Assembly: GCA_024137785.1 (NCBI GenBank)
Contig: JAHRHZ010000068.1
Location: forward strand, 2,366,928-2,430,927
Direction: 5' to 3'
DNA length: 64,000 nt
DNA from: Ginglymostoma cirratum
Taxonomy: Eukaryota
The notes under the pieces are model-generated. The model was not told the origin of the DNA. It made no database searches and was given only the letters and a program-made list of their open reading frames with translations. Shown piece after piece: positions 1,334 through 62,570 of the stretch. Each line of letters opens with the position of its first letter. The first letter of the stretch is position 1. Both the position numbers and the translations under genes were made by a program.

Positions 1334-2462
1334 ATGCTGATTTGACATCACCTCTGCTATTTTCAAACTTGTTGCTCTAACTATCATCTTCTGTCAACAC
1401 ATTCGGTAGCAGGACAAACATTCCTCAATTTCACCCATAACAGTAGATTTTAAAGGAATCTAGCATTTGAAGGGTAATTAACCTCTACCTGTCTTTTTCA
1501 GTTTGTGGGAGTACTTGCTGAATTAAGGAGTTGGATATAGTTGTTGATGTTGACACAGACTGTTGCTACATGTAGAAAAGAGAAGGCTTTGTTTGTAATT
1601 TCTCACATTCTGTACTCAGTCATGGGTGCTGTAAATGAAATCTTTCTTATGCTGATCATTACACAGAGAGATAGAAGACAAGAACGGAAAGGATAAGATG
1701 ATCAGAAAGGGAGGAGGAGTGGGAGAAGACTTCTCAACAGGAGGTTATCCAATTGGAATCTTCTAACACTTGCCTTGTCTACACCTAAAAAAAGAGCAAT
1801 GAGTAAATCATCTACCATTTATGAAAAAAATGATCATAGAAATCTCTAACTTGCAACCAGACCTGTAACCTTAAAGCAGGACAAGGACAGGGCTGCCAAT
1901 AGCTATGAAAGTGACTATGGTGTTGAATGTCTTCATTAATTCTGATTCAACACCACCTATCCAGAAACTTGAATGCATGATATATCTGTATACACCACCT
2001 TCAGACATATTGATGTCACTTCGATAAAGAGAGAAATTTCCCAAACAGATTTCCCTGGATAGTGTCCAATCCTTTAACTTGCACAGTTTTCTAAATAAGT
2101 GATATTAATTCTTCTGAGGTATCTGCATTGAATTATATGAATTCCATACCTCTTGGATCAAACCTTGGACAAATTATCCGAGAGTTCAAAGCGATGACGT
2201 GACCAGAGGTCATTATTATTGGATTGTTTGCACTGGTCACTTTGAAGTCCTTCATGACTCAAGCAGGTGAAATGAGCAGCATCCTTCAGTTTGCCATCCA
2301 TTGCTGCATCAGAAAGGCAATTGATGTTCTTCAAGCCAAGGGAAGAAAGTATATTGCACCCTCTCTGAAATACCCATGGCTTTGCCAGAAGAGCAGACCT
2401 CCCCATTGTGAAGGGTGCCATCAATATAATACACATGTGGTACAGTGAACAATAGGTTAGTA

Positions 2463-2600
2463 AAAACCAAAAGAACTGTAGATTCTGTAAATCAGGAACA
2501 AAAATAGAAATTGTTTGAAAAGCTCAGCAGGTCTGGCAGCATTTGTGAAAAGAAAATCAGAGTTAATGTTTCCAGTGACTCTTCCTCAGAACTCTGAAGA
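2463..2600 (-). mobile_element. Short PLE-tail element, family B, with degenerate hammerhead motif
   Basis: Minus strand 2596-2558 reads cagagtt CTGAGGA AG AGTCACTG GAAA CA TT aactctg: a 7-bp helix I with helix II partly deleted. The tail follows (gctgccagacctgctgagcttttc). TSD-like aggttagta at 2454-2462 and 2604-2612. Confidence 0.75.
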
Positions 2601-3475
2601 ATAAGGTTAGTATATCTGTACTACTTCAGATGAGACCTGATCAACAATTACATCCTTTAGCTCACCTAAGTCAGTGATCTTTTATCTACACCAAAACCAA
2701 ATCCAGAATTGTTCGTTTTATGAATGAACACTTAGACATCTTAAACAAACAAACCTTCTACCTCCACAGACCAAATCTATGACGCATCCTTCAGGATATT
2801 CTCAAACAAAAAAGCAAGTTAATTGTTTTACCTCTCACACAATCTTTGATGCTATAAATCATATTACTTATCTCTAATAGAGCTTTATGACCCTCTTTCC
2901 TAAAGACATTTCTATTTATTAGCTTCTTGCCTGGGGCTAATAATGGACGTTCTGGCTATACCAACAGATATAGAAATGGGTCGTTCGTTAGTCAGTGATT
3001 ACAACTTCTAATTCAGACCTTGAAGATAAACGTGGGTTAGTTTTTGGTAGTAATTAACTCTGAGCTTATTTGAATTGCGTGACCTTCAGTGTTGTTTAAC
3101 AGCTTTGAAATCAAATGCTGCCAGTTATCTACAGTTAAGGTGACAATTCCTAAAATTTCGATCTCCCACATCCTGGCCTTTATGACAGCACGACCCTTGT
3201 CTCCATGAATGGGGTGAGAGGCTGAAAGGTAGGATGACAATTCGGTGGCAGATATCTGTCCAGCCGGGCTGTCTGTAATCATCTCATTCAATGATCTTCT
3301 CGTTCACAAACAGAAACCCAAAATCCCATTGTACAATACTCACGCACATTACCACTCCTCCATTATGATCCATCAGTGTCCCTTTGGCCACAATGCAAAA
3401 AATATAAAAGCCACCGCAAAACAACTATTCTGTCTAAAAATCATTCAGTTCACAAAGACAACAACCATTCTTATG

Positions 3476-3641
3476 TGAGATAGTAAGAACTGCTGATGCT
3501 GGAGTCTGAGATAACACAGTGTTGAGCTGGAGGAACACAGCAGGCCAGGCAGCATCGGAGGAGCAGGAAAGCTGACGTTTCGGGTTTCTGAAGAAGGGTC
3601 CTGACCGGAAACGTCAGCTTTCCTGTTCCTCTGATGCTGCC
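3476..3641. mobile_element. Palindromic (fold-back) PLE-tail element, family A, with hammerhead motif
   Basis: The arms gcagcatcggaggagcaggaaagctgacgtttc and gaaacgtcagctttcctgttcctctgatgctgc are reverse complements. Plus-strand core CTGAAGA A GGGTC CT GACCG GAAA CG TC at 3588-3615. Weak TSD attcttatg/atttttatg. Confidence 0.85.
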
Positions 3642-4279
3642 TAATTATTTTTATGCATTCCCTATTGGACTGTTCTTGTAAACACTTAGACTCATGCTTC
3701 CATGCAGTGTTAGCCCTGAGCCTGTAGTTTGGCAGAAGGCTGCTATCATTCAGTGGGGAAGACTGCAGGTGGCCTTGTTCTGGGCCTAAAAGGCCTGGCT
3801 TTATACTGTGGCACTTCAGCAGTGGTGGCAGCACCTTGGACTACAATCAAAGCATGGGAAGTGGTAAAAGGACAAATGCTATTACATTTACTGGACAATT
3901 TACTGGATTGCAGTGAGACTCCACAAGCCTCCTGGAGCACTGGTGCCTGCAGCCATGACAACAGCAAGCAAAGACTTCTTGGCAGGAAACTATGGCTCCA
4001 TGGAATAAGATATGATTTCGTGAAAAAAGCACGCATTTTGTGAAATGACCACAATTTTCATGCTGGGAAGGATGGACTCCAGATATAAAGCACTATGCCA
4101 AACTGGTACCAAATTCTACCTGCTCCTTAACAGTGCCACCAGGATTTCTATCAACACACTATGCATACCAGAATACATAGCCATTAGTATCTATGTCACT
4201 ACATCCCAGTTCTCATGCAGCAGATGTTGTGCATGAGTTTGCTTCCCAACGAGCTAACACATTCACTATCTGTAGTCAT

Positions 4280-4764: not shown

Positions 4765-4775
4765 TAGCATAAATT

Positions 4776-5110: not shown

Positions 5111-6056
5111 TCTCTACTCAACAGAACTGGCAGGGTGTGTGGAGAAAATAAAAATACATCCAAAGGTTCGGGCAACCTTGCATTAGAATTGGTGTATGTT
5201 CTGAATGCTACCCTTATCCTGTTTTTGCATCTTTGTACTTCTTTTGTACGGAATATTAAAATGTTCTTTCCATTGACAGTTAATGAATCTGAACACATAA
5301 TATTGGTAAATATTGATTCTAAATGCAGAGTCATTGATTATAGCAATCATTATTGTTAGACAATAGCTTGTCCAGGTCTCTCATTGCCTAAACTGACAAG
5401 TTTCATTTCAATTTCAGAATTTATTTCACGTAAATCTTATTTTATTTGTTAAAGAGATTGGAATAATATTCTATATTGCAGCAGTATTATTGATCTCAAA
5501 GTGAAGAGTAAATAATATGCTTAAATGAAAGTATTAATGCTCTTATTGTATAATTTTCAACAATGCACAAGTAATATAGATACAGGCAGATTTTTCTTGG
5601 CATATAGAGGTAATTCTAACCTAATCGGTCAGCACGTAACCCACAACATCAAGAGGAATTTCACACTTTTACAGATGTCCCAATATTGACTTCAATTGAG
5701 AAGAAAATTGGACTGGATGCAAAAACAGTGGTGTATCAGTCCATTCAGTTTCCTAATGGTAAGTTAGGTTAATACTGTCTACCAGCATCTGAATTCTTTA
5801 ATGGCAGCAAACTTGCCTGAACAGTAGTCAAAATACCACTGAGTTTCTTGTAAAATGGATTTAGTTTGTTACAATGGGTGTCTATAGAACATATTCAAAA
5901 AAGGGCAGTTATTTTGACTGATGTCTTATGATATTGCAATAAACTACTGTGTCTATGCTTGATTTTGAAAAATCTGAATGCTCAGCAGTAATTAATATTA
6001 AGTGAAGAAGGTAAATTACGTAGAACAGCTTCTCATCACCCACCTATTAAACTTAC

Positions 6057-7545: not shown

Positions 7546-7575
7546 GGGCCCCAAACAGAACTGCAGCTGCAGACA

Positions 7576-7674
7576 TTCTGAGGAAGGATCCCCAGACCCA
7601 AAATGTTAACTCTGTTTTATTCCTTCACAGGTGCTGCCAGATCTGCTGAGCCTTTCCAGCAACTTTGTTTTTGT
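7576..7674 (+). mobile_element. Short PLE-tail element, family B, CpG-decayed hammerhead
   Basis: tt CTGAGGA A GGATC CCCA GACCC AAAA TG TT aactctg, then the tail gctgccagatctgctgagcctttccagcaac shared with the 2.5 kb and 35.6 kb copies. Confidence 0.75.
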
Positions 7675-7799
7675 ATGGGATAGAGAGTGCTCAGCTTACC
7701 AATTTAGCTACAGAGATCTAGTGAAAATGTGGTTTGTTTGACTACACAGTTGGCAGCAAGAATCATCCTATTAGAGAAAATAGAGATTGATTTGAAAAG

Positions 7800-14990: not shown

Positions 14991-15300
14991 TGAAAAGAGT
15001 CACAAACCATGGCTAGGTTAGTTATCTGCTGTGACAGAGAACTAAACTGCTGTTTAAGGAAATGCTATCCCTTTCCACTGAGAAACAATATGCTAAACTG
15101 GTGATTGGCATCACACAAGTTGTCAATAACACCCTAAGAAATTCTGCAATGCAACTGATTCCCAATGCTCCCTCAGACTGCTTGCCTCTGTCCATTGTCA
15201 CTTTGTTATGTATTCCTCTTGGTGTAGATCCAGTAAAATAGACCATCTGGGAAATATCACTGTAGTCATTATAGCATTGCTGAATTTCTAGCTTAATATT

Positions 15301-16561
15301 TGGCTCTGTGAGGGGCAGGTCATGCCTCTCAAGCCTTATTGAATTCTTTGGGGATGTGACAAAACACATCGATGAAGGTAGAGCAGTAAATGTGGTGTAT
15401 ATGGATTTTAGCAAGGCATTCGATGAGGTTCCACATGGTAGGATCATTCAGAAGGTAAGGAGGCATGGCATTCAGGGAAATTTGGCTGTCTGGATACAAA
15501 ACTGGCTGTCCAATAGAAGACAGAGGTTGGTAGTAGATGGAAAGTATTTAGCCTGGAGCTCATTGTCCAGTGGTGTTCCACAGGGATCTGTTCTGGGACC
15601 TCCGCCCTTTGTGATCTTTATAAATGACTTGGATGAGGAAGTGGAAGGTTGGGTTAGTAAGTTTGCTGAGGACACGAAGGTTGGTGGAGTTGTGGACAGT
15701 ATGGAGGGCTGCTGTAGGTTGCAATGGGACATTGACAGGATGCAGAGCTGGGCAAAGAAATGGCAGATGGAATTCAACCCAGAAAAGTGTGAAGTGACTC
15801 ATTTGGGAAGGTCGAATTTGACTGCAGAATACAGGGTTAATGGCAGGATTCTTGGCAGTGTGGAGGAACAGAGGGACCTTGGGGTCCATGTCCATAGATC
15901 CCTCAAAGTTGCCACCCAAGCTGATAGGGTTGTACAGAAGGCGTATGGTGCATTGGCTTTCATTGCTAGGGGAATTGAGTTTAAGAGCTGTGAGGTTATG
16001 CTGCAGCTCTATAAAACTCTGGTTCGACCACACTTGGAATATTGTGTTCAGTTCTGGTCACCTCATTATAGGAAAGATGTGGAAGCTTTAGAACGGATGC
16101 AGAGGAGTTTTACCGGGATGCTGCCTGGACACGAGGGTAGGTCTTATGAGGAGAGGTTGAGGGAGCTAGGGCTTTTTTCATTGGAGTGAAGAAGGATGAG
16201 GGGTGACTTGATAAAGGTTTACAAGATGATGAGAGGTATAGATAGAGTGGATAGTCAGAGACCTTTTTCCCAGGGCGGAAATGACTATTATGAGGGGGCA
16301 GAATTTTAAGGTGATTGGAGGAAGGTATAGGGGAGATGTCAGAGGTAGATTCTTTACACAGAGAGTGGTGGGTGTGTGGAATGCGCTGCTGGCAGTGACA
16401 GTGGAGTCAGATACTTTAGGGACTTTTAAGCGACTCTTAGATAGGAGGATAGTAAAATGTAGAGTATGCGGGGTAGATTGATCTCAGTAGGATAACAGGC
16501 CGGCACAACATCGTGGGCCGAAGGGCCTGTACTGTGCTGTACTGCTCTATGTTGTATGTTC
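15301..16561 (+). mobile_element. 5'-truncated CR1 LINE (RT domain to 3' tail)
   Basis: ORF 15308-16189 has GRSCL, YMDFSKAFD, SGVPQGSVLGP and KFAED (catalytic FADD mutated). After a TGA at 16187 it continues to FFTQRVVGVWNAL. The 3'UTR is gggccgaagggcctgtactgtgctg. Possible TSD taatatt at 15294-15300 and 16562-16568. Confidence 0.97.
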
Positions 16562-20090: not shown

Positions 20091-21570
20091 CACCTGTCAC
20101 CTTAACCAGCTGGCACCCTGGCACCCTACCCCTACTCACTTGGCAAGCTGTCCATCTTGAACCCTAACCTCAAGTGATTTATGTACTTTTCCCTTTCATA
20201 AGAGCTGACTATGTGTCTGTCTGTGCTGCTTGACACTTCAATCACAGAATTCAGCAACTACTGGTATGGAAAAGGAAATGTGTTTTGGCTTCTCCTAACT
20301 ATCTTGCAGTGTGAGGAACCATCAGATTGAAAATGTGTTCCACGTTTCTGAAGAAACCCTGATCAGAATCTCTTGCCAGAAATGTCAAGCTCTATTGTAA
20401 CGTAAAAAAGTTGCAGCAGAGTATCAATTGATGCCATTCCTTAGAAATCTGTCCTAATATTTAATAAAAGCAGTTTTTTTTTAGCCAATCCAATTCAGGA
20501 AGTCAGTTCATGATGCGAGATGATTGGGCACAGGTTTCTTTTTCTGGTTTCTGGACTGAAATTTTTCTAACATTTTCAGTCTTGCTTTTTCTGCTCTAAA
20601 CCATAAGTAATCAAGGTTTATTAGCTCATGTGAGCCATTATCTGCCATGCATGGTCAGAGACATACTGAACTCAAATTGGCTTATAAAAGCATGCACAGT
20701 TCATTTTGCATTGATAAGTATTGTCCTTTCAGTTCCAAAAAAACCCCCACATCTTTTCATTTCCTTCATTTCTGGACAGTGGGCTTAAAAAAAAACTGCT
20801 TTAAACCAAGGAGACTATGCAAAAAGGTGGTTACCATTTTAAAAAGCCATGGTTACTGGAACAAATTGTGATTCGTATACAGACTTAAATTTAGATTAAA
20901 GTGTGCAGGAAATTTTGACCATTGTGCAAGAGAACAATGAAATATAGGCAAATTCTGTGCAATGAAATAAACATAATAGCATAGAACATATGTTAATAGT
21001 TTGCAACGTAGCATCATTGCCCAGTGACGGAAAGACTGAGGATATATAGATAGCCCTTGTACAAGAGAATCCAAAGTAGTTATTGAGTCTTATGCCACAG
21101 ATTCACAAGTTTTGAGGATGATTTAATTGAAGAGGCAATGCTAAAGTATTTATTTGCATCAGAATTGCAGAAGACTCTAATCCAAGAGTATTGTCATGGG
21201 ATTCATGGTAACCCTAACTTTAGATACTGACGCAATGAACTTCACTTGAGAACCAAATGAACTTGACCTTTTTATTCTGTTTCAAATGAAGATTTAAATA
21301 CAATCATTGGGTGTTATTATCCTAGATTAACATTTTTTTTGGAGTAAAATACTGGCTGGAGTAAGTTAATAGAATTTCTTGATTATGAAAAATACTTCTT
21401 GTTGGAAGTTTTAAATCTCAGAATGCAAGACTGTTCAGGTGGAGGCTACTAATTCAATCTTTCAACATACAAACTTGTTCACATTTCTGGTAAGGAAGTT
21501 GCCTTGTACTGAACACAAGCATGGGGCTGGATGAACACAGCAGGTCAAGCAGCATCATAGGAGCAGGAAA

Positions 21571-21606
21571 ACTTGACGTTTCGGGCCTAAACCCTTCATC
21601 AGAAAT
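21571..21606 (-). ncRNA. Minimal type-I hammerhead ribozyme motif (inverted arm)
   Basis: Exact reverse complement of 22251-22286. Confidence 0.65.
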
Positions 21607-22250
21607 GGGGGAGGGGAAGAGGGTTCTGAAATAAATAGGGAGAGAGGGGGAGGCGGATAGAGGATGGATAGAGGANNNNNNNNNNNNNNNNNNNNNNNNN
21701 NNNNNNNNNNNNNNNNNNNNNNNNNNNNNNNNNNNNNNNNNNNNNNNNNNNNNNNNNNNNNNNNNNNNNNNNNNNNNNNNNNNNNNNNNNNNNNNNNNNN
21801 NNNNNNNNNNNNNNNNNNNNNNNNNNNNNNNNNNNNNNNNNNNNNNNNNNNNNNNNNNNNNNNNNNNNNNNNNNNNNNNNNNNNNNNNNNNNNNNNNNNN
21901 NNNNNNNNNNNNNNNNNNNNNNNNNNNNNNNNNNNNNNNNNNNNNNNNNNNNNNNNNNNNNNNNNNNNNNNNNNNNNNNNNNNNNNNNNNNNNNNNNNNN
22001 NNNNNNNNNNNNNNNNNNNNNNNNNNNNNNNNNNNNNNNNNNNNNNNNNNNNNNNNNNNNNNNNNNNNNNNNNNNTCCTCCCTGGACTGACCTATCTCCT
22101 CCCTACCCCCCTACCTACACTCACCTTTACTGGCTCCATCCCCGCCTCTTCGACTTGTCTGCCTCCTCTCCACCTATCCTCTCCTCTATCAATCCTCTAT
22201 CCGCCTCCCCCTCTCTCCCTATTTATTTCAGAACCCTCTTCCCCTCCCCC

Positions 22251-22286
22251 ATTTCTGATGAAGGGTTTAGGCCCGAAACGTCAAGT
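22251..22286 (+). ncRNA. Minimal type-I hammerhead ribozyme motif
   Basis: attt CTGATGA A GGGTT TA GGCCC GAAA CG TC aagt: complete core, 5-bp helix II (3 GC + 2 GU), minimal helix III and 4-bp helix I. Predicted cleavage after C22282. Activity untested. Confidence 0.7.
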
Positions 22287-24139
22287 TTTCCTGCTCCTAT
22301 GATGCTGCTTGACCTGCTGTGTTCATCCAGCCCCATGCTTGTTATCTTGGATTCTCCAGCATCTGCAGTACCTTTTATCTCTGCCTTGTACTGAATGTAA
22401 CTTATGGAATATTTTAAGGATTTGAAAGACGTTAAAATATTCCAGGAGACTTGAATAAGGGGAGCAGTGAGGATGGATGGATGGAGACCTTGCTGTTGCT
22501 GTCTGTATGACACATACCTTGTGTTGAGATGAATTTTGAAATTAGATTAAGGTAGTAAAGATCACATGCTTCTATTTCCTTCACTTTTCGGACAGTGAAA
22601 AGGAGAATGCTGCTTTAAAGCAAAGAGACTGTGCAAAGAGCTGGCTGAAATTTTAAGAACCATGCTTACTGAAGCACATTGTATACAAATCACAATGTTA
22701 AGTTTCCCCTAGAACAGTGACAGCAAAATCTGATGCCACGGTGTCAATCAATTCCGAACTTAGGGAAAACTACTTGCCAACAGCACGTTGATTATCTCCT
22801 AACTAGATGACCATGGCTTGTGTGGAGCCAGTGCTGCAGAGAATTAGCCAGCTTGCAAAAACAAATATTCAAAAAATCTCTATATCTCTCTCTCTGTCTT
22901 CTGTAGGAACTAGAAAGTCACCAGTCGTAGCTAATTGCCTCCCACTCATTTTCGTCTGTAAATCCCCTATTGAAGGAGAAGTAAAACATCTTTAACGCAG
23001 TGAAAGAGCAATTTCTCAGCCAGCAAATAAAAGACAGCATTGGTGTGCATACAACCTCATCTCAGTTATCTCATTGGATGGCTTGATTAAATCTTTTCAC
23101 AACTGCAGGAATAGTGGGGCTTGATTTCATCTCAAGACCCTAGGAGGTTGTGATACTTGGCTTCTTCAAAATTAACGCTCACCTGACAGATATCACTTGT
23201 ACTTTTATTGTTTGACATGACTTTATAAGATCATCCCTGGGATATCTAATGAAAGTGAAATTGCAATTTAAGGTCAGCTCTTTTGTATCAATTTGTCTCT
23301 CTTAGATTATCAACTCCATCTGCCATTACCAAGATAAGATGGCACCAATGAGGTATTTAAGCATCTGCTTAGAAAATGTAGTGTCATCTCCTAGTGATTT
23401 ACTATCAACCTAAATGTCCCAATTAATACATCTAAAATGATCAAATAAGACTATCAAACTTGTTACAGAACACAATTCCAAAGTTTTATATATCCAAGAA
23501 TTTTTTATTTTAAATTATTCATTCATGGGATGTGCACGTCACTAACTGGTTTGAACAATATGATTGACCAGACATTAACAAATATAATCTTATCTTCAAA
23601 TGAAAAACACACATTATTATCTTACCAACCCTTGTCATATGATTGGCACATTTGTGTTAAAGAGAAGAGTTAGCAGGCATTGGATCAAAAACCTAGAACC
23701 CACTTCCTAACAACATTGTGAGAGTACCTACATGATTAGTATTTTATATAACTGACTGTCCAATTCAAGGACACAAGGCCAACATCCAGCTTCAGAGGAA
23801 TGCCAGACCGGTTTAGTGTAGACCCTGTCCAGTTCCTATGCTCTAAGGAAGAAAGTAGGGTAAGAACTGAAAGGATATTATTGTAAAAATTGAACAGTCT
23901 ATGCCAGCAGTGCAAATATCAGGGGCAAATGTTAGTTAGATTATGTGAAGATTTTAAATTGACCGTATATCAGGTACTAGAAAAGCAGTGCAGGCAGAAA
24001 GAGAGTTATGATACGATTCATGTGAGAAAAAGTAGTCTGAAATAGAACTAGAATGTTAACATGAATGAATATCGCATAAATGAAGAATGGTCCTTACACT
24101 TGTTTATTTAAGATGTTTGGTATGAAGGTGAGGTTGGTT

Positions 24140-28069: not shown

Positions 28070-28506
28070 TAGACGTAAGAGCAGAAATTAGGCCATTCAG
28101 CCCATCAAGCTCAGCCATTCAATCATAGAATTCCTACAGTGTGGAAACAGGCCTTTTGGCCCAACAAGTCCACACTGAACCTCAGAGCATCCCACCCAGA
28201 CCCATCCCCCGATAACCCACCTAATCTACACATCCCTATGGGCAATTTAGCATGGCCAATCCACCCAACCTGCACATCTTCGGGCTGTGGGAGGAAACCA
28301 GAGCACCTGGAGGAAACCCACACAGACATGGGGAGGATGTGCAAACTCCACACAGACAGTCACCTGAGGCTGGAATCAAACCCAGGTCTCTGGAGCTGTG
28401 AGGCAGCAATACTAACCACTGAGCCAATCATGGCTGATCAGTTCCTCAACCCCATTCTCCTGCTTTCTCCCCATAACACTTGATCCCCTTGATAATCAAG
28501 AATCTA
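28070..28506 (-). mobile_element. CR1 3' fragment interrupted by an HE1 SINE
   Basis: The host resumes across the insertion: gccattcaatcat|...|caatcatggctgatc...ttctccccataacacttgatccc. Confidence 0.75.
28127..28424 (-). mobile_element. HE1-type V-SINE
   Basis: Reverse complement of the 4776-5110 family. TSD caatcat at 28120-28126 and 28425-28431. Confidence 0.92.
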
Positions 28507-33925: not shown

Positions 33926-35571
33926 TGCAAGGTTTTCATCTTTTCAATAATGCAAAACAAATAATAGTGATGAATTGCTGTACTTTAGTTGACTGGTTGT
34001 GTCCAACGATTAGACTTAGGACCTATAAGTACTGCTGTGCTCATATTTTAATTTCAGAATCGAGCTGGTGTGCTTCAAACTTCTATAATTTTTCTGTGCA
34101 TTCATTTGTATCTGAAAGGTAAGGTAGCTAGTACTGATAAAGAGTATTATAATGTCAGTTCGTGAGGTAATGGACAGCCGAAAAGCAATTATAGTTTCGA
34201 CTTTTCCTTTGTAAAAATACAAGACTCTGAAATGGGAGGGTGAGGTGACAGCCACTATCTGTCTACGTAACAGCTGTGAATAAAAGTACACTTCTTCACT
34301 TTTTGGGTACAAAAATACTGATTTTTGTCTCTACAAAAGCAAACAAAGAACAAGTTATATTGCACTGATACATGCATAGGTCAAAAGAATAACAACATGC
34401 CATAGGCTAATACAATCTAGTGCCATTAAGATCAACAATGATTTTTAATTACATTTGAGATCTAAACAAGTAATTACATCATTGTAGCTTTTAATTAAAT
34501 AATGACAACTCTTCAAATAGATCTTTAAAGATTCATTGTCCTCTGCAGGCTGTTACGGAGCTGGATCCACAGAATAATAAACAGCTTCTTAGAAGAGAAA
34601 AGAATCATTTTCAGCAGGAAATGTAAGACATCAGCCTAGAAATTGTTGACAGTAGTAATGCACTTATATTTAATACACTCATATGACAATTGTTTCTCCC
34701 CCATTTTAACTCAGGTTTATTGTGCTATTTATTTTAAATTGTTTAACATCCAACAATAAAATAGCAGACAAAGAAATCTTACATGAGCAGGTTTAGCATT
34801 TGTCAGCGAATAACACCAATAGCAATATTTAATGACATCATACGTCCACTCACATTGGTTAATAATTCTCAGAAGGACAGCTTCCCCCTTAATTAACCAT
34901 TACCAAATAAATGCTGTATATAATGCATTGATTCCAATAAAACATTTCCTGTTGCTCTCACTGGCTTTGAAATTTGTTGTGAGGTCATTAACATGCTTAT
35001 CTTGTTGTTTTTTGCTTGTTAATTTTAACCAAGGTTTTAACTTATGTCAATTTGATAATGGTCTCAATCCACTCGCAGTGAGGTTTTCCTTGAAAATAAT
35101 ATTGCAATATTGAAAAAATTGCTAAAATACTTTGTGATTCATAGCTTTCCACAGCTTTCAGTTTGCAAACAGACTGTTATGTCAATGAAAGATAAGAACT
35201 TCAGTTGAAATTTTCATGTTGCACTGGAACAAAAATGTTTGGTATTGTAATCTCCTAAAGTTCATGATTTCTTGAGGGCTGTACCAGGGATCTCACTGAA
35301 TAAGATGGCAATTGCATACAAATAAAAGAAAAGACAAGGAGCTTATAAAAATGCCTTTAGATCAGCAACGATCATTCTTCTAATATCCCAACCAAGTTTT
35401 ACACAGACAGGATCAAGCTTGCCTGGGGTATCTTATACGTAACATTCAAATAGGGAAGTTCAGTCCATCAATACATTCCAAAGAATAAGGGGCAATGTTC
35501 CAGATGATGTTGCAGTGCATCTTAATGTATTAATCATCATCAACATTACAAAGGTAGTCTGAAAATATTAG

Positions 35572-35678
35572 ACTATCAGTTCTGAAGGAGGGTCACTGGG
35601 CTCAAAATGTTAACTCTGCTTTCTCGCCACTGATGCTGCCAGACCTTCTGAATTTCTCCAGCAATTTCTGTTTTTGTT
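35572..35678 (+). mobile_element. Short PLE-tail element, family B, decayed hammerhead, 14-bp TSD
   Basis: agtt CTGAAGG A GGGTC ACTG GGCTC AAAA TG TT aact, followed by the tail. TSD tctgaaaatattag at 35558-35571 and 35679-35692. Confidence 0.82.
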
Positions 35679-36299
35679 TCTGAAAATATTAGCGTTCTAT
35701 TTTTCGGTTACCTCTCTATTGAAGATTTTTCTTTGCTTTAGTGTTCTGCAGTATAATTACCAAAATAGAAAACACATAGGGACACAAACAAAATCAGTAC
35801 ACTTAGTGATTATTAATAAGTGACAGTGTAAAAATGCAGAAAGAGAAACAGTTAGTATTCAACTGTCAGTTCAATATGAGGTACAACCGGACTCACAAAT
35901 TGGTATTTGCAGCCAAAAAATCTGAAAACTTGTAATTTCGATACATTTAATTGTGCAGACCTCATTTGAAACATTATTGCTACAAATCATAAATATTCAC
36001 TTCGGTATTTCAGAAATACACAACCAGTCAGTTAGAGCAAGGTTAGTTTTTTAAAACATGGGTTTAATTATAGTTTGCAAAAAAAAGGTGGATAAATTAT
36101 AGTGTCTAAATTATTTGCAATGAACTTCTAAAGTTTAAATTGATTGCAAATTCTAGATGTGCTCCACGTTAATTCTTTTTAACTTTTGATTCATGAAGAG
36201 GAAATTTAAAACAGAACAAAATTAATTTAAACAATTTATTGTTCACATCAAATCTTGCTGGCAAGTACATGGTCAGACATTCCATTCTGTAATGTAATG

Positions 36300-46434: not shown

Positions 46435-46752
46435 GGTGATGCTGGAAAATAAGGATGGGATTAAGACTGTATCTAGTGAGAAGGTAAATGTATGTTGCAA
46501 TGCTGACCCATATTAGCTCCAATAGACCACACACAGAAATTTAACCCCAGTTTCTTATTCAAAGATTATAATAGATTCCACAAATAAACTGCGCATCTTG
46601 TGATCTGGGTTCCAGGTTGTACAGCCCAGGGTCAGTAATTATTAACTTTATGAGAGTCTATTATTATGAGTAGAGCACTATTGTTGCTTTTTGATTTAAT
46701 TAAATCAGCGTAGCATGCAATTCCATCTTCCAAAAGAATCATATTCATAAAT

Positions 46753-48333
46753 GGACACCACCCCAAGGTCTCCTACCCTCCCTTGACCTCTTCATCTCCA
46801 ACTGCCGTCGAGACATCAATCGCCTCAACCTCTCTACCCCTCTCAAACACTCCAACCTCTCCCCCGCAGAACGTGCAGCCCTCCACTCCCTCCGCTCCAA
46901 TCCCAACCTCACCATAAAACCCGCGGACAAGGGAGGGGCAGTCGTAGTATGGCGCACTGACCTCTACATTGCTGAGGCCAGGCACCAACTCTCTGACACC
47001 TCCTTCTACTGCCCCCTGGATCATGATCCCACCCCCGAGCCCCAAACCATCCACAACCTCATCACCTCAGGTGACCTCCCACCCATCGCCTCCAACCTCA
47101 TCGTTCCCCAACCCCGCACCGCCCGCTTCGATCTCCTCCCCAAAATCCACAAACCTGAATGCCCTGGTCAACCCATTGTCTCCGCCTGCTCCTGCCCCAC
47201 CGAACTCATCTCCACCTACCTAGACTCCATTTTCACCCCCTTGGTCCAGGAACACCCTACCTACGTCTGTGACACCACCCACGCCCTCCACCTCCTCCAG
47301 AACTTCCAATTCCCAGGTCCCCAACACCTCATTTTTACCATGGACTTCCAGTCCCTATATACCTGTATTCCCCATGCTGATGGCCTAAAGGCCCTCCGCT
47401 TCTTCCTGTCCCGCAGAACGGACCAATCCCCCTCCACCGACACCCTCATCCGCCTAGCCGAACTCGTCCTTACCCTCAACAACTTTTCTTTCAATTCCTC
47501 CCACTTCCTACAGACAAAGGGGGTGGCCATGGGTACCCGCATGGGCCCAAGCTATGCCTGCCTCTTTGTAGTTATGTGGAACAATCCCTCTTCCGTACCT
47601 ACACTGGCCCTAAACCCCACCTCTTCCTCCGTTACATTGATGACTGCATCGGCGCCGCCTCGTGCTCCCACGAGGAGCTCGAACAGTTCATCCAATTCAC
47701 CAACACCTTCCACCCCAACCTGAAGTTCACCTGGACCATCTCCAACACTTCTCTCTCCTTCCTGGACCTCTCTGTCTCCATCTCGGGCAACCACCTAGAG
47801 ACAGATGTCCATTTCAAGCCCACTGACTCCCACAGCTACCTGGAATACACCTCCTCCCACCCACCCTCCTGCAAAAATGCCATCCCCTATTCCCAATTCC
47901 TTCGCCTCNNNNNNNNNNNNNNNNNNNNNNNNNNNNNNNNNNNNNNNNNNNNNNNNNNNNNNNNNNNNNNNNNNNNNNNNNNNNNNNNNNNNNNNNNNNN
48001 NNNNNNNNNNNNNNNNNNNNNNNNNNNNNNNNNNNNNNNNNNNNNNNNNNNNNNNNNNNNNNNNNNNNNNNNNNNNNNNNNNNNNNNNNNNNNNNNNNNN
48101 NNNNNNNNNNNNNNNNNNNNNNNNNNNNNNNNNNNNNNNNNNNNNNNNNNNNNNNNNNNNNNNNNNNNNNNNNNNNNNNNNNNNNNNNNNNNNNNNNNNN
48201 NNNNNNNNNNNNNNNNNNNNNNNNNNNNNNNNNNNNNNNNNNNNNNNNNNNNNNNNNNNNNNNNNNNNNNNNNNNNNNNNNNNNNNNNNNNNNNNNNNNN
48301 NNNNNNNNTTCATCCAGCCCCATGCTTGTTATC
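46753..48333 (+). mobile_element. 5'-truncated Penelope-like retroelement (RT coding, C-rich)
   Basis: The frame contains IKPADKG, LPKIHK, TMDFQSLYT and GVAMGTRMGPSYACLFV. After a 1-nt frameshift at about 47570 it has RYIDD, FLDL and SHPP..K.AIPYSQFLRL. The family-A tail follows the gap. TSD tcatattcataaat at 46739-46752 and 48334-48347. A GIY-YIG domain, if present, lies in the gap. Confidence 0.93.
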
Positions 48334-51300
48334 TCATATTCATAAATCACAGTTTTTATTTTGAAATTCATTCTGTAATCCTCTGATTGACAAAGAACAC
48401 TAATTGTTCAATTCTGATTTTCTTAGAAGGTAGAATTGCTCAACAAACTGAATTAAATTGTTGTACTGCTCGGTCCCCAACAATGCAGACTTTCATAATA
48501 GCTTCCTGACTGTGTAATACAATATTGCAGATAGTTGAAGGATCACTTCAAAATACAATGATGCAACTTTTAATGTTTGGCTGAGCTGATCACCTGGATG
48601 AAAATAAGGCGGGTGGATTTGTTTGTCACTACAAGTTTTTATTGATGATCAATTTGGAAGACTCGTTCCAAATTTGTGTCTTTCTTCAGGAACATCAATC
48701 TCATGAAACTGGGGAAATCACTGTCTTAACTGTTTTAAATGTAGTTCTTCAGGTTCACACAACCATTTTCAGGACAATGATACCTCGTAACTAATGTAAA
48801 TAGCTTACTTATTTTTAATACTGTCTATTAGGTATCTACAATTTACCATTAATCCTTCCACTTCCTTCTGCTCTCAGTGCCAAAGGCACTGCTGTTGATA
48901 CTAAGAACATTACTTTCTTACTATCAAACCCTGCTGCCCTGCTGCCTCTCTTTCTACCAGCCTTGCTTCTGATCTTGCTAATAGCGAACCTGCTTCTCTT
49001 CCCACAGATGTTGCACCATTGCTGAGAACAACAATATTCTTAGCTTAGGGCTTGGGGGAGTATTTCTAAAAGTTGGGATTAGATTTGGGAACAGTGTTTC
49101 ACTGGAGATAGGTTCAAGATATCGTAAATTTGTTAGTCCTACAGAACCGTTGTCATTTCCTAAGGCATTCATTGATGGAAGTGGGCATCTATGACTTTCA
49201 CGGCTGTGGGCCAAACCTAGCAGACTAATATTTGGAAGATAGTTGGCTTACATCTTGGACTCCTAATTTTGCAAGGGCTTGTTCAGCTTTCTGTGGGCAT
49301 GTAGTCGTAATTAATCAGACATATTAAAACAGCAAGAATAAAACCACTATTGTTTCAACAAAATGGCAGTTTTTTTTACTAGTCTCATTAGATGATTGAA
49401 ATAGAGAGAAATCCAAGTTATTTTTAACCTAACTTATGATTTATTTTTGCAAAACATTTATTTCTACAAAGTCAGAATGGTATTGAGATATATAATGGAA
49501 ACATGCCCTGACACAATGAGTATCAGCACTAATTTTTGAAGATCATAGCTCTAAAAAACAGCAAACTGTGCTGATGATAAAGGGTCATTCAAATAACATA
49601 ACAAAATAATAAAGTGTTTTTTCTGGTTTATTTATATGTTGATTGGCTAGGAAAGTGTCTAATCACACACAAAAAAAATCTTACCTACATCATTGACATG
49701 GAAAAGAGAGTTGATTGAAGACGAGACTTGTTCAGTTGAAGCTTGTTAACCCCTCAATCATATGCCCCCTCAATCATAGTCCAATTTACAAGTTCAACTT
49801 ATATTTCCAAATTTAATTCAAAGATTAGAGATATTACTTGTTTTGCAAAATGTTTTTGATTAGAAAAACATAACTGTTACATTGGACGCAGCTTTAAAAA
49901 AGACAGAAATCTGAAACATGCTATTGACGTGTACATTTAAGAAGTTAAACTTGTAAAACTATTTGACAAATTAAGACAATTTAAGAATGTATCGTTCCCC
50001 TGAGAAAAAAATTGATGTTTGATTGTTTCCGAATGAATCCAGACATTTGCACAGTATGACAAGTATATGCACAGGATGGTCACTAGAACATTTTGTTCCA
50101 CACTCCAAGCACTTTCCAGGAGCTTGTGGACAGAAACTCTTCATACTTACAAACACCATTCTATTGAATACAGTTTATATGCATCGCTTGAATTGAATCC
50201 CAGGAGAGACTTGAAAGGAAATGCAATTTCTGGTAATAACGGCTCATAGCAGAGAATACTACCTACTTATCCCAGCAATTTCCAGCAATTTCTGACTCCT
50301 TTCAGAATTAACCTTTCATATCAAAGGAGCAATTCTGCACACAAGAGACAGCAGCGCAATTTCATGCATAATTTATTCGCACTGTTCAACACACAACACA
50401 AAGTCCTTGACTTTGTCAAGGTGGATTTTACTGGCAGTCCTTCCAGCCAAGAGAATATAAGTCTGGGCTGTGTAATGTAACCTCATAACCCCCACTGATT
50501 TGACCATAAAATGGTATTTACCCAAGAAAGCCAGGCTAATATATATTTTAAGAAAAATGACAATGGGCCTTTTATTATTAATCATACCTTGTAATACATT
50601 ATCTTAGATTGTTTAATTTGTAATGTTCTGTTTTTAACCCTATTTAATATCTGATGCTGATTTCAGCTAGCATCTCGTACTTCCATCGTCTACTCCATTA
50701 TTTTAATATACACACAGCATATCCTAAGTCTATGCAAGGTTCAGACTAAAGACATTCAAAACTATATGCGGAATGATCAACACTTAAAATACATAAAAGT
50801 GAAAATATAGCAAAATCTCCCTTGCTTTATATTTGAACAGTAACTAGCCTTCTTATATAGAATTCCAAGAATATGCCTTCTCTGGAACTAGATTTAGAGT
50901 CAAATTGTCCTTAATTGACATCAAATGTCTTTTATAAAATGAGAATATATATAGCATATACCCCAGTTCCATTTCGGCTTTTATTTTAGCAAGTTTAAAT
51001 GTTCACGTATGCATTCACAATAGCAAAACATTGCGCACCTAGTGAAACCTCTATATATGTATAAAAGATAACGAGGAGTTCATGAAAAAAGAATATGATT
51101 GAAAAGTCAAAACAAGCTCAGTATTGTTAAACTGTCACAATGATAGAAGGCTCACTTATCAAATGTGAATCAATCTCCCCAGAGAACCAGCAATCATGTT
51201 TATCTCATTCACACTAAGCAATATCACTATTAATTTCTGCAAACATTTTTATGGCTATTGAAGATTTCAATTATATGAGCACAAACAACTTACAAGTTTT

Positions 51301-56190: not shown

Positions 56191-57233
56191 TCACATGAAG
56201 CTATTTACCTTGCATTCATTAGGACTGAGATGCATGAAACAAGCTTGATAAAGGAGACATCAATTTATATAGCATGAGAAAATGGTGCTAATTGGTTGGG
56301 CCATTGCTGGTGTGGAGATGCAACAGAAACAGCTCGCTGTCAGTCTTAGTCTACAGAACGGAGTCTAATTGGTCAGAATGTTTCCATGGGCAATGCAGCA
56401 GCGATTGGTAGCCTCTATGATCCCTTTCTCAATGCTAAAGTTGCAGTAGATGTATGAATTCCTTATGCCTACTTAAAATAGGGTTTTGTATGTTATGTGG
56501 CTTCTAGTACTCACAAATGCATCACACTGTGAGCTTGACAGAGCTCATAAATTGGTTTTTGTTGTATTTCATAGCTCAGTGCTTATTATTTAGTAAATTT
56601 TATCCAAAAACAGAATCATGTCTAAAGTTAGATATGATGTTCTGAGGTTTTCAGGCACAGGCTGGTTGAGCTGATTGGCATGCTGCTGGCTGCAAATGGT
56701 CAAGCATGTTGTTTGATATGGCCTGCTAGCCAATGGGACATATGACCTATAAACCTGTAATCAAGTTCCTGTGCTGGAACTCATAGATCACATTACTAAT
56801 TTGTGCAGTGGGCAAAACAAATCTTTAGCTAGATGGCTGTATTTTGTTAGAGGAAATAAAACTACTACAAAGTAGCAACACGAGATAGTTGGCTTCACCT
56901 ATTGTTCAAATGCACGCAGTACTTTCCACTTCCAGAGTAATCTGAGTCAGACTTGGCACTTTCAGCACTTAATGTGATGGTCATAAACCCTTTCATAAGT
57001 TTGAACAATATGGAATGAGTGATGATTTAATCAGGGTAGCCATTATCATGCAAGATAGTTTTTCCCTGCCTTATCACAGCATCAAGCACCAAGCAAACAG
57101 ATGCTTGGGGGCCTTTTCACAAGTTTGCCAATAAGATTGACCTTGTACCACGAAAGGATCAGTCGGATTCATTGTGCGTTTATTGGCCAGTGAGTATAGG
57201 CTACTGGTGGATAGCCAGTAGAAGCATGATTGA

Positions 57234-57440
57234 TACAGAGATAGTAGGAACTGCCGATGCTGGAGAATCTGGTATAACAAGGTGTAGAGCTCGATGAACA
57301 CAGCAGGCCAAGCAGCACCAGAAGTGCAGGAAAGCTGACGTTTCAGGCAAAGAAGGGTCTAGACCTGAAACGTCAGCTTTCCAGCTCCTCTGATGCTGCT
57401 TGGCCTGCTTTGTCCATCCAGCTCTACACCTTGTTATACC
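57234..57440. mobile_element. Palindromic PLE-tail element, family A (gap-free)
   Basis: About 75-80 nt inverted arms (tctggtataacaaggtgtagagct...ctgacgtttcagg / cctgaaacgtcag...agctctacaccttgttataccaga). The centre has a truncated core aagaAGGGTCTAGACCTGAAACGTC. TSD agaagcatga(t/c)tga at 57220-57233 and 57441-57454. Confidence 0.9.
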
Positions 57441-59004
57441 AGAAGCATGACTGACAGGTTTTTCAACTAATAAATCGAGGACAGAGAGCTCAGTTGATTT
57501 TTCCAATTCAATGGTAAATTTGAGTACAGGATGGAGTTTATTAGTCTATGTAAGAAGTTATTTAATGCAGCTATGGGTTCAAATATCACAAATAAGTCAT
57601 CTACTCAACAGAAACATGCAAGAAATAGGAGGATAGAAGAGGTAGTTGTCATTTCACTGAAGATAAGCTTCTGAAAGTGTCCAAGGAAGATGTTAACAAA
57701 AATTAGACCTGGAGGGGATCAAATGGCAATGTAATTTTTTTGGGCACACATAGTGCCTTTGTAACTGAACTCGACCATGTGACTAAGCTAAAAGTCCTTT
57801 TTTTTGGATTGGAAAACCAGCGGTTAAGTGGCTTGCACACTATAACTTGATAATGGTGTTGGCGATTGCCCTGGCACATTGATAATTGATGTTGAAAAAG
57901 TTAAAATCTTTCACCAATTTTTTTTATGAGTGGGATCTTTCCACTCAGCAGTTTTATATTATCTTTGATGCAAGATTCCTTGCTCAGTTGAGATAGCAAT
58001 GCACTAACTCATTGTAAGCAAAAATTACTAGCTTAATGTTCTAATACACATGTAGATTTCTACGTACAGCAGCCCTGCGAGGCAGTTCTTAATGCTATCT
58101 ATACTTCAACATGTGGAATCCCTTCATCAGTGGCTAATACATTGCCCTAATGAAGCTCCGATTACTGAGAATGATCAATTAGGAACAAGGAATATGCCTG
58201 TCAATCAAAAAGTAAGAAAAAATATCTATTTTGTTGCACTAGACAATACAATTTGAAGTAGCACTAGTGTGAAGGACATTTTTATGCAGTCTCTGCAGGC
58301 CACTTCAATGCATTTCTCTTCATAAAATTAGTCCCAGATCACCTGCCCCAACCCTTTGTTTATTTTAGCCCAATTAATAGCACATCATTTATCATTTATT
58401 TTTTAAAAAATAATAAGCCGACTGTTAGATTAAATGGGAAGAGATGGGTAATTGTGAGATAATGAATGGAATATTTGGAATAAATATATGTGGCAACTAG
58501 ATGAAATGATTCTCTATTTGCTGAAAGTATTCAATGTGAAGTTATTAGTAACAGTAAACAAGAACTATGATGCTTTTTGAGACTGTACGTGAAATTCAGA
58601 CTTATACAACAAAGCATGTTGGACGTAGATATTTGCTATATGGAACATTGCTTGTGAAAATATCTGTTTTGAGTTCCTAATCACATCAGAAATTAAGAAA
58701 ACATGCTTATGTCAAAAAATGATTTTTGACTCTACTAGCTGGAAATTCTTAATTGATCTGTTTTTTTTAAACAGACCAAAGCCACAATTCAGCACCTCAA
58801 ATTCACAAGCAAATAATGCAGTCCATATGCATCATTGCACCTTCTGCATTCTAAAAACACTGCAATGGATACAACCTGAAATCAACACCAGGAATAGTGC
58901 TTTTGAAAGATTGGGGGTGGGACATTTATTTTTCTTTCCTCACAACTGGGTGGATGCAAATCATTAGACAAATCACTTGGACTATGGATTTAGTCAATGT
59001 GTGC

Positions 59005-59532: not shown

Positions 59533-61778
59533 CAAGGATCAATTCCAAGTTCTTAAATCTTTGGAAGATTGTCAAAGAACATGAATTATGACGTTTCTGG
59601 AGATTGATCAATTCCATCTTTCTGAGTAAGAATATAATGGCTAAATGATGAGTGAGGAGAGAGAACACGAGGGGAGGAAGAAATGGGGACTCTAGTGAAT
59701 AAAAGTAATTCCTTTCCAACTGGATCCAAGAATTCTGGCAAAATATAATGATGTAGTCATAACAGTGAGTTTAAATCAAACTGTCATACTTAATTAACAG
59801 TAAAAGCTATTTTCATTAAGCTTTCAGTTGAATGCAGTCCACTGAAGTCACTTAAAAATAATTACACTGTACTTCGATTTGATGATGCATCAAAACAGAG
59901 ATTTCTTTCAGTTTAAATTAAATCCTCACAGCTCGTTAACAATAAAAGATATCTGCATCAAAATTTCAATAGAGTGGTGCACTGAAAGTTCAATTAGAAA
60001 CAGTTTCATGCCACAGTTCATTGCCATCAAAGCAGAGAATTAATTGGATAATTGACTAATCCAGATAATTGATTACCTAATTGGATAATCTGAATTTTAC
60101 GAACTAATTGATAAACTCCTGCAAATCTATATCATCCACCTCTAAACATAGCCACCTAAACTGATGTACAAACAAATATTTATCTTGATTCAAACATAAA
60201 AGAAAGTTTGTTTTATGTTTATTCTTAAAAGTCACAGCACTGAAGGGGATAAAACATTCCTTCTCAAATATACATTTTGTTGTTATCAGTCGAGAGTTAA
60301 TGAGATGTCTGTCCCTACCATTATCAAATACACAAGCAGAACACATTGGGGAAACCACCTGAATGGAATAGGCACTGCTAATAAGGTTGGTCTATTCTGT
60401 CCCTATTAACATACTTCTCAAGTTTCTGTGTGATTTGGGTTTTGTTGGACTAGGAAGTTATTGGCATTTCCGAGAACTTGCATGACAGCATTTTTAAATA
60501 TTGTAGGAGGTGCTCCATCTTGTCTTTTAGATTGCTAGTACAAGGGGGAAAAAACTCAAATATGAATGTGCACGGAATACCTCAAAATGTTCTTCAAAGG
60601 GATAGGCAAAGCTGGAAGTCATGCTGCTGTCCAAATGGATAATTTTTATTTGAAGGAAGGAAGGAAGGAAGTGAGTGAGGAAGGCAGAAATGTTTTCAAA
60701 ATAGAACTAGAGTTGTGGTGGAACTGCTTAAACAAGTGCTCAAGGAGAGAACAGAAGTGTATTGACCCTTCTGAAACATTCATATCATTAAGAAGAATAT
60801 TGTAGGGTATTTTAATTGAAGTAGTGCAATTCTAAGCAGAGCACAGGGACTAGCAGGACCAAATCTTTTCTGGTGGCAGACAGGTTGAGAAGACTTTTTG
60901 AGACAGGCAGAACTCATGTATTTTCAAGTAGAGACATAAGGCAAAATGTTTGAACTGAGTCTCCAGCAAAACGTTGAGATACGCAATGGGTCAGGAATCT
61001 GATTGCTACGAGAATAGGCTTTGCTGTGTCTGTGAGTTTCTGGGTTTATTATTGGCAGTGCCCAGATAGAGAAGGCAAAAAGGTGTCTGTCAAAGGAAGA
61101 ATTTCTAATCAAAGGAATCCCAGAAGAGGACAGAATAGCTGAAGCAAACATGGATTTCAACAAGTATGGAAATGAAGACAAGATGTAGGAAGGATGCCAC
61201 AAGTTTCTTCAATGTTACCTGAAGGGCCTGCTGCAGGGATCTGACCTGAGAGATTGCAATGTCGTACATTCTATCAAGGATTATCACAGAAGTTTTAGGT
61301 GACAGTACGTAGGACGGTCTGGACAAACTGTTAACTCTGAATGCATGACAAATGTCAGATCCAGGGAGATGAGTGAAACTCTGGGATAAGATATCTTAAC
61401 GACAGAGTTGTATGCGAGTTTGAGGGATTGGAGTGACCAGGACCTTCTGGAGGTGTACAGGAGTCTGCATCTAGCAAGGAAGGATATTATTATCGTCATA
61501 TACATCCAGAAAGCGGAAATCAATGACTGATTTCACTCTTAAAGTGGATCATCACATTCTTTTCCAAGTGATCGCCAATTGAGGCAAATCTACTCTGGAG
61601 TTGTTGAGGCACACTGACCAAAGTGATACACAACATCTCTGAGAATCTGATACTACTCAGGGATGCAGTTACCTGTTTGCAGAACATGGGGTAGGGACCT
61701 ACCTTTTAAACCTAAACTGGGAGACCTGGCAGATATCAACAGAATAATATACACCTACAGTCAACACGGTTGGCTGGA

Positions 61779-62370
61779 TAACAAGGTGTAGAGCTGGATG
61801 AACGCAGCAGGCCAAGCAGCATCAGAGGANNNNNNNNNNNNNNNNNNNNNNNNNNNNNNNNNNNNNNNNNNNNNNNNNNNNNNNNNNNNNNNNNNNNNNN
61901 NNNNNNNNNNNNNNNNNNNNNNNNNNNNNNNNNNNNNNNNNNNNNNNNNNNNNNNNNNNNNNNNNNNNNNNNNNNNNNNNNNNNNNNNNNNNNNNNNNNN
62001 NNNNNNNNNNNNNNNNNNNNNNNNNNNNNNNNNNNNNNNNNNNNNNNNNNNNNNNNNNNNNNNNNNNNNNNNNNNNNNNNNNNNNNNNNNNNNNNNNNNN
62101 NNNNNNNNNNNNNNNNNNNNNNNNNNNNNNNNNNNNNNNNNNNNNNNNNNNNNNNNNNNNNNNNNNNNNNNNNNNNNNNNNNNNNNNNNNNNNNNNNNNN
62201 NNNNNNNNNNNNNNNNNNNNNNNNNNNNNCCCTTCTTCATTTTCTGAAGAAGGGTCTAGGCCCAAAACGTCAGCTTTCCTGCTCCTCTGATGCTGCTTGG
62301 CCTGCTGCGTTCATCCAGCTCTACACCTTGTTATCTCAGATTCTCCAGCATCTGTAATTCCTACTATCTC
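61779..62370 (+). mobile_element. Palindromic PLE-tail element, family A, spanning a gap
   Basis: The left arm ataacaaggtgtagagctggatgaacgcagcagg... is the reverse complement of the right arm. The core CTGAAGA A GGGTC TA GGCCC AAAA CG TC at 62244-62271 has G12->A. TSD gttggctgga at 61769-61778 and 62372-62381. Confidence 0.88.
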
Positions 62371-62570
62371 AGTTGGCTGGAAGGCTGATTTGTGATGTAG
62401 AGTGATGCCAGCAGCATGGGTTCAGTTCCTGCATCGGCTCATGTTACTGTGAAGGACTCTCCTCCTCAACCTCCCTCCTCACTTGAGGTGTGGTGACCAT
62501 CGGGATAACCAACACTCTAATGAGGGAGAAGCCCTATGGTCTGCTAGGACTATTATGATTTTACCTTTTT
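62370..62570 (+). mobile_element. tRNA-derived SINE interrupted at its A-box by the palindromic element
   Basis: cagttggctgga...gggttcagttcct (B box)...ctctaatgagggagaagccctatggtc. Confidence 0.7.

Follow-up and report, generated by a model that had tools for sequence, protein, structure and literature searches.

Head-to-head ends of a Penelope-like element in a hammerhead-bearing fold-back insertion of Ginglymostoma cirratum

Among endonuclease-bearing (EN+) Penelope-like elements (PLEs), insertions with an inverted pseudo-long terminal repeat (pLTR), a one-sided tail and a target-site duplication (TSD) are standard (PMC3846280, PMC8557442, PMC8969392), and the tail itself has been described (PMC3846280, PMC8557442, PMC11167929). 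Minimal hammerhead motifs are also known from these elements, both as opposite-strand pairs 100-700 bp apart and as single motifs left by truncated PLEs (PMC4209133); here and below, what we say of published systems extends to the parts of the cited papers that were available to us. We have analysed an insertion of this kind at 21500..22395 of a 64,000-nt stretch of contig JAHRHZ010000068.1 of Ginglymostoma cirratum (hereafter the window; all coordinates are window positions). An initial annotation had read it as a PLE pLTR that carries a minimal type-I hammerhead motif and is produced by the PLE machinery, and had placed it in a self-standing non-autonomous family resembling miniature inverted-repeat transposable elements (MITEs). 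The first of these claims is confirmed, the arm being the 3' end of autonomous copies, while the second is contradicted by the autonomous 3' ends, by the fold-back junctions and by a tree of the arms (see below). The insertion is probably a single one, composed of two 5'-truncated 3' ends of an autonomous EN+ PLE lying head-to-head, one tailed and one tail-less; that it originated by truncation of a PLE we regard as very probable.

The arms are 3' ends of a Penelope-like element

The insertion is enclosed by the 14-bp TSD that had been claimed for it, the 14-mer occurring nowhere else in the window (Table 1). Its inverted arms (21515-21675 and 22182-22342) match over 161 nt with a single mismatch, at 22191. 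As a statement about pairing, the 161-nt inverted arms of the initial annotation thus stand; as a full length they do not, since the left arm stops at a block of 400 N, which makes 161 nt a lower bound for the arms and the element length likewise a lower bound, nor are the arms equal, a 39-nt tail being present on the right arm exclusively. No readable open reading frame (ORF) lies in 21500..22395. In the other PLE copy of the window a 400-N block replaces about 1,160 bases of a related copy, so such blocks may not keep the true length. Blocks of exactly 400 N (also of 100 and 10) are frequent at PLE inverted junctions and tandem overlaps in the genomic loci L001-L060 and L121-L134.

With the right arm as query, 40 scored candidates in the shark's own genome yielded 44 matches, and the best 30 loci were examined; a second search, with the window's reverse transcriptase (RT) stretch, together with a look at wider surroundings led to further copies, L123-L125 among them. 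The arm runs on into a long ORF at 96-100% identity in L002 and L008 and at 93% in L029, and in L123-L125 the same PLE end, at 97-99% identity, comes after open frames of 769-775 aa. On L123, Pfam finds GIY-YIG at 24.1 bits (cut-off 22.6) and RVT_1 at 27.6 bits, 2 below its cut-off of 29.6. The motifs ADKG and YIDD, a CX4CxxC linker and CCHH are visible in translations of genomic copies, and an RT with a C-terminal GIY-YIG domain bearing CCHH is linked to the same end in L002, L008 and L123-L125, as in an EN+ PLE. A CX2-5CxxC linker between RT and endonuclease marks Neptune or Nematis (PMC8557442) and, judging from these translations, the shark family carries a linker of this type. The closest named proteins are uncharacterised ones of carpet sharks, namely the whale shark (92% identity), the zebra shark (87%) and the bamboo shark (78%). 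With open frames of about 770 aa and 97-99% identity between copies the family looks young, which could allow reconstitution in vitro, as for the anole element.

In a single example, L121, hammerhead and tail run into the beginning of the ORF, the ATG lying 40 nt after the tail, so that a pLTR stands upstream of the ORF. This locus is chimeric: on its reverse strand, 3590-5441 comprise the hammerhead edge, the tail and the 5' half of the ORF, followed by a jump to a second, tail-less copy that starts at the same base, with a 12-bp TSD. Between the N-terminal region and the RT, the PLE ORF harbours an Ala/Thr/Pro-rich tandem-repeat stretch of variable length (around 4300-4620 on the reverse strand of L121; also in L042 and L046).

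The behaviour of the arms as a population was followed with seven natural seed copies in 160 10-kb stretches taken from 25 large contigs (1,248,021 readable bases; the first 60 stretches at round coordinates). This sample holds 370 arms making up about 294 insertions, one per 4.2 kb or so, and, if it is typical, there are roughly a million insertions genome-wide; the high abundance noted from the window (about 1 per 9 kb) is thus borne out. Pairs less than 400 nt apart are head-to-head in 76 cases and tail-to-tail in 2. Among the 59 pairs that could be classified (17 further pairs could not), 50 combine a tailed with a tail-less arm, and this asymmetry differs from what is seen in single arms, 73 of which are tailed and 80 tail-less (p=3e-8). 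A TSD of at least 8 bp flanks 20 of 28 pairs versus 1 of 28 controls, and flanking repeats of at least 8 bp are found around 10 of 38 single short arms versus 1 of 38 controls. Where both arms are short and of at least 85% identity, the fold-back junctions are all distinct (41/41), which indicates that the hairpins are built at insertion. The junctions of six loci (L139, L177, L182, L215, L216 and L222) contain short repeated pieces of the boundary, as if the polymerase had re-primed repeatedly at the RNA end.

Both arms were likely laid down by two priming events, one on each strand of a single staggered cut. By analogy with the anole PLE in vitro, the PLE protein would nick both strands and begin cDNA synthesis at two places within the RNA, one at either boundary of the tail; two nicks and two internal start sites would make each arm a separate cDNA, joined to the other at the far ends. 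We somewhat favour two such independent primings over self-priming (snap-back) of the inverted arm on one cDNA or on an antisense template. Snap-back has been proposed for rotifer PLEs (PMC3846280), and it would suit both the junctions that are palindromic or carry short repeated filler, of which there are several, and the arms of 21500..22395, which differ at only 1 of 161 positions. We nonetheless hold it to be rather unlikely here, because either arm may be the longer one at its 5' side, because internal deletions occur on either side, and because nicking and extension of both strands have been obtained in vitro with the anole protein (PMC11167929).

The 5' boundary and the hammerhead motif

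The 5' ends of the arms are not scattered evenly. In a census of 268 arms of at least 85% identity, 16 were dropped at N blocks or stretch edges and 252 kept, with positions counted from the hammerhead C3: 79 arms start at -8..+2, 5 at -44..-9, 62 beyond -45, and the other 106 within the motif or downstream of it. Between -44 and +40, 79 of the 151 starts thus fall within the 11 nt at the upstream edge of the hammerhead, against 19.5 expected if they were uniform. The modes of this boundary are -4 and -3, and it is present in both PLE-end families, A/B and C (34/83 in family C). Stem I opens with position -4, which is occupied by the A of CCATTTC in A/B and by that of TCAGTTC in C. The initiator consensus is YYANWYY, which we take both sequences to fit. 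A TATA-like motif lies 29-33 nt above the initiator-like A in 56 of 60 long arms, in surroundings that differ between the two families, and the spacing is exactly 31 in 44 of the 51 family A/B long arms that have the motif. Short arms lack this TATA-like box, which they would likely need for their own transcription. In L121, two segments joined by a template jump within one enclosing TSD both begin at -5 (5 nt above C3), the first continuing through the tail into the ORF start. Nine of the 30 best genomic matches start about 65 nt above the core; this apparent hotspot was rejected as a search bias, as it coincides with the single variant base of the right arm.

From this arrangement, we consider it reasonably likely that the PLE transcript starts at the initiator-like A, on the first base of hammerhead stem I. 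A putative TATA box and initiator have been noted in the pLTR of the rotifer Pen2a (PMC3846280, PMC8557442). An extra G at -5, in 15 of 24 non-C bases (p=2e-4; long arms have C there in 57 of 60 cases), is weakly suggestive of a cap-derived base, in line with the extra G of L1 and SVA, which has been attributed to cap copying (PMC3287187). The pLTR promoter, with its TATA-like motif at -31 and its initiator-like A, would then let transcription begin at the first base of stem I; a cDNA primed in the first pLTR would reach the transcription start and run off there, about 95 or 130 nt long, which would account for the many hammerhead-only inserts, and a cDNA primed in a downstream pLTR would read into the 3' untranslated region (UTR) and the ORF until truncation, as may have happened for both arms of 21500..22395. 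The short copies, devoid of the TATA-like box, would likely be dead on arrival.

The pile of 5' ends could instead mark, with the PLE origin unchanged, a point at the hammerhead edge where the RT stalls or switches template or where the RNA is processed. Known as it is from DNA copies and not from RNA ends, the pile leaves room for such a reading, and a C-rich tract does lie just upstream in family A/B, family C has CAG immediately before the boundary, and helix I marks the end of an intron in D. virilis (PMC4209133). Yet family C shares the boundary (34/83) without any C-run, many of its short arms retain the AG or CAG that splicing would remove, the spacing from TATA-like motif to A is preserved in both families, and the scarcity of ends just upstream (5 in 36 nt) is what a hard RNA end should produce. 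A stall or processing point is thus rather improbable, and a transcription start remains our preferred explanation of the boundary.

Both arms of 21500..22395 read CUGAUGA-A-GGGUUUAGGCCC-GAAA-CG-UC. The cores had been described as intact on both strands of this copy, and so they are (22255-22282 on the forward strand and 21602-21575 on the reverse); the predicted cut, after C22282, was also correctly placed relative to the motif. The motif has the CUGANGA/GAAA/UH core, a G-C-closed helix II, a palindromic helix III and a stem I, as in minimal type-I hammerheads, and a strict descriptor finds 20 matches in 874,965 readable sampled bases versus none in a Markov-1 control. An Rfam scan of the window gave no hammerhead family at E<=5, its best matches being hairpin-driven microRNA families far below the gathering score.

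In 114 aligned arms, the commonest letters preserve the core, the extra A and the ACGU palindrome, N7 and H17 differing between families. Pairs 1-3 of helix II are most commonly G-C in all subfamilies; pair 4 is U-G or U-A, a one-sided change, and pair 3 of stem I passes from U-G to G-C in family C, a two-sided one. Departures from the core outside CpG amount to 0.4%, 3.8% and 3.2% in families A, B and C (26, 26 and 28 rows), versus 5.0% and 5.5% downstream in A and B, where the figures include subfamily differences, and G12, as part of a CpG, decays at 8-35% across copies, so that this comparison is uninformative. As the copies decay at CpG, G12 included, selection is readable between families only, and the conservation test on genomic copies that had been suggested is misplaced. 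What the 114 arms keep in common is compatible with a motif held by selection in the source elements, true covariation being slight. Among the arms, we looked for a pile of 5' ends at the hammerhead cut site and found none; around +29 there are a few ends in family C, and these follow CpG decay at which the alignment breaks. Minimal motifs of the PLE type cleave weakly, as dimers (PMC4209133), and the anole PLE hammerhead depends on the element's own protein, and insertion in vitro does not require the ribozyme (PMC11167929). The shark hammerhead likely also cleaves only as a dimer or with help from a protein, and the template that is copied would be uncleaved.

Put together, the transcript would begin on the first base of the hammerhead, driven by a TATA/initiator promoter that is conserved among shark PLE families, and there would be one priming per internal site and one per strand; we give this combined proposal an even chance. 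If it is true, about a million run-off cDNAs record the start of the RNA with the ribozyme uncut on the template, and the hammerhead may act in decapping or as a switch between translation and copying, not in release from a longer transcript.

A separate short family, contrary evidence and other copies

Could the short copies be a family of their own, namely a non-autonomous ribozyme-bearing one, resembling short interspersed nuclear elements (SINEs) or MITEs, with its own short masters mobilised in trans by the PLE? The sharp 5' boundary and the very high copy number could be read in this way, as could the mild clustering of short arms on the tree, and non-autonomous derivatives of PLEs do exist: non-LTR retrozymes, present also in one chondrichthyan (10.64898/2026.07.22.740005), and non-autonomous Chlamys (PMC8557442). 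But the fixed internal structure, copied whole, of a MITE or SINE is not seen, all 41 junctions being different. Nor does a separate short lineage emerge from the tree, which, built on 87 family A/B arms and poorly resolved, has short and long arms intermixed, with 92-nt sequences that are identical between the two classes; short-long distances resemble within-class distances in each subfamily. Distinct junctions and the intermixed tree speak against a hairpin that replicates as well as against a separate master of the short copies. Moreover, the same boundary recurs in every subfamily, the short arms lack the TATA-like box, and the 21500..22395 copy takes in 305 nt or more of the autonomous 3' UTR. 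A separate short family is therefore already largely refuted, and we consider it very improbable. An assembly artefact as the source of the inverted arms on either side of the gap at 21.5-22.4 kb is scarcely credible, for although the left arm ends at a 400-N block of a sort frequent at inverted junctions elsewhere, both arms are enclosed by the unique 14-bp TSD and differ by one base and the tail, and gap-free copies of the same layout exist (L003, L004, L007, L018, L019 and L023).

A number of observations nevertheless weigh against our account of head-to-head PLE ends bounded by a transcription start. The centre of 21500..22395 reads N, so its own junction is unseen and the unique junctions come from other loci. 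The genome sample was not random: 100 of the 160 stretches neighbour earlier readable ones, and only large contigs are represented. Eight of the 59 classified pairs are tail-less on both sides and one is tailed on both, and 28 of the 38 single short arms have no TSD of at least 8 bp. The clustering of short and long arms on the tree, albeit mild, amounts to 22 label changes versus 28.0 after shuffling, and 3-5 of 500 shuffles were as low. The TATA and initiator motifs are short consensus matches judged by eye, the proposed transcription start is read from DNA only, and the promoter of D. virilis Penelope is internal and TATA-less (PMC2377424). Among single arms the extra G reaches only 5 of 9 (p=0.056), and some extra Gs stem from the partner arm or from repeated filler, one lying inside a TSD. 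In the hammerhead, subfamilies B and B2 have a mismatched U-C at pair 3 of stem I, covariation is slight, and free-energy folding gives no hammerhead fold (z -0.27; stretches of 50 and 61 nt no better than shuffles), as is expected for a motif without helix III.

Table 1. Features of the insertion at 21500..22395 and other PLE-derived copies in the window
Feature	Positions	Strand	Remarks
Left TSD, 14 bp	21500..21513	+	14-mer present just twice in the window, both strands counted
Inverted tail-less arm: PLE 3' end/pLTR, 5'-truncated	21515..21675	-	ends in N block
Minimal type-I hammerhead, left arm, intact	21575..21602	-	C3 at 21602
N block, 400 N	21676..22075	.	hides centre of insertion
Direct arm: PLE 3' UTR, pLTR and tail	22076..22381	+	99% identity with 3' end of ORF-bearing L002
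TATA-like TATTTAT	22220..22226	+	first T 31 nt upstream of initiator-like A; putative promoter role
Initiator-like CCATTTC	22249..22255	+	A22251 is -4 from C3, pile-up position and first base of hammerhead stem I
Minimal type-I hammerhead, right arm	22255..22282	+	CUGAUGA, extra A, 4-bp helix II, GAAA, palindromic ACGU helix III; C17 is 22282
Stem I 3' strand AAGU	22283..22286	+	pairs with AUUU 22251-22254
PLE tail, 39 nt	22343..22381	+	right arm exclusively; left arm without
Right TSD, 14 bp	22382..22395	+	matches left TSD
Single arm, second PLE-end family (C), degenerate core	2454..2612	-	9-bp flanking repeat
Short fold-back pair, older subfamily	3477..3642	.	left arm tailed, right tail-less; no TSD found
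Single arm, family C, degenerate core	7575..7675	+	no TSD found
Single arm, family C, degenerate core	35558..35692	+	14-bp TSD
Longer 5'-truncated copy, same PLE family as 21.5 kb	46739..48347	+	frameshifted RT stretch, 400-N block; tail-less end 48309-48333; 14-bp TSD
Short fold-back pair, older subfamily	57220..57450	.	10-bp TSD
Fold-back pair around 400-N block	61769..62381	.	10-bp TSD; G12 mutated

Seven copies in the window had been credited with the hammerhead core, a TSD and a fold-back, and each generalisation holds in part. The core is intact only at 21.5-22.4 kb, which accounts for both matches of the strict descriptor in the window; in the other six it is defective, with AAAA instead of GAAA in the 7.6, 35.6 and 62.2 kb copies, no CUG at 57.3 kb, a G-G closing pair at 3.5 kb, and a shortened helix II and CA for CG at 2.5 kb. 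Flanking repeats of 9-14 bp surround five of the seven (2.5, 21.5, 35.6, 57.3 and 61.8 kb) and none of at least 6 bp was found at 3.5 and 7.6 kb. Four of the seven are fold-backs, the copies at 2.5, 7.6 and 35.6 kb being single arms of family C. Pfam gives no match on the window's own frameshifted PLE frames.

Other features of the window are recorded here for completeness. A diverged (~80%) duplicate of a 150-bp stretch flanks the insertion (20748-20902 and 22536-22696), with sub-blocks reordered and one 17-nt block inverted. A CUGAAGA...GAAA-UG-UC motif with a longer, poorly paired helix II, at 20348-20390 on the forward strand, is possibly an older PLE end. A 301-aa frame with RVT_1 (E 3e-20) at 15284-16189 (forward strand) is presumably a fragment of a long interspersed nuclear element of the CR1/L2 type, and two SINE-like repeat copies of about 300 bp, 75% identical and in opposite orientation, lie at 4793-5105 and 28130-28408.

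Relation to described systems

The element is an instance of ordinary PLE biology in a shark family that we did not find described: no paper on this PLE family or on the 5' boundary turned up in the literature searched, a search that did not extend to Repbase, Dfam and several supplements. Hairpins of this sort can be mis-annotated as MITEs or as microRNA precursors. The useful part of our data is the population statistics, that is, the near-strict rule of one tail and one no-tail and the 5' boundary at a TATA/initiator-like site, which give testable predictions about the formation of the inverted pLTR and the role of the hammerhead in the PLE cycle.

The hammerhead features agree with those of the minimal hammerhead ribozymes of metazoan PLEs (Cervera and De la Pena 2014, PMC4209133), except that helix II is only 4-5 bp in the shark; sharks are not named in the parts of that paper available to us. 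The non-LTR retrozymes (10.64898/2026.07.22.740005) likewise derive from PLE pLTRs, carry a type-I hammerhead and occur in a chondrichthyan. Retrozymes are, however, head-to-tail tandem arrays, whereas the shark arms are dispersed, single or head-to-head, and have TSDs; no head-to-tail tandem unit was found among the copies of the window, tandem arrays not having been searched for elsewhere in the genome.

Poseidon_Ac of the green anole (Frangieh et al. 2024, PMC11167929) resembles the shark PLE in its ends: there, too, two classes of 3' ends lie about 30-39 nt apart, the hammerhead is uncleaved in genomic copies and no ends are found at the cut site. Unlike Poseidon_Ac, the shark PLE appears to have a linker of the Neptune/Nematis type, and in L121 the ATG follows the tail by 40 nt instead of lying in the hammerhead; the available parts of PMC11167929 do not mention a 5' run-off boundary for Poseidon_Ac. 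With canonical EN+ PLE units (PMC3846280, PMC8557442), the shark family shares the head-to-head arms, a one-sided tail of 30-40 bp (here 39 nt), a TSD of about 8-17 bp and an RT followed by GIY-YIG with CCHH. What sets it apart from such reports, as far as the parts available to us go, is its density of about one insertion per 4.2 kb and the piling of its 5' ends at the first bases of the hammerhead.

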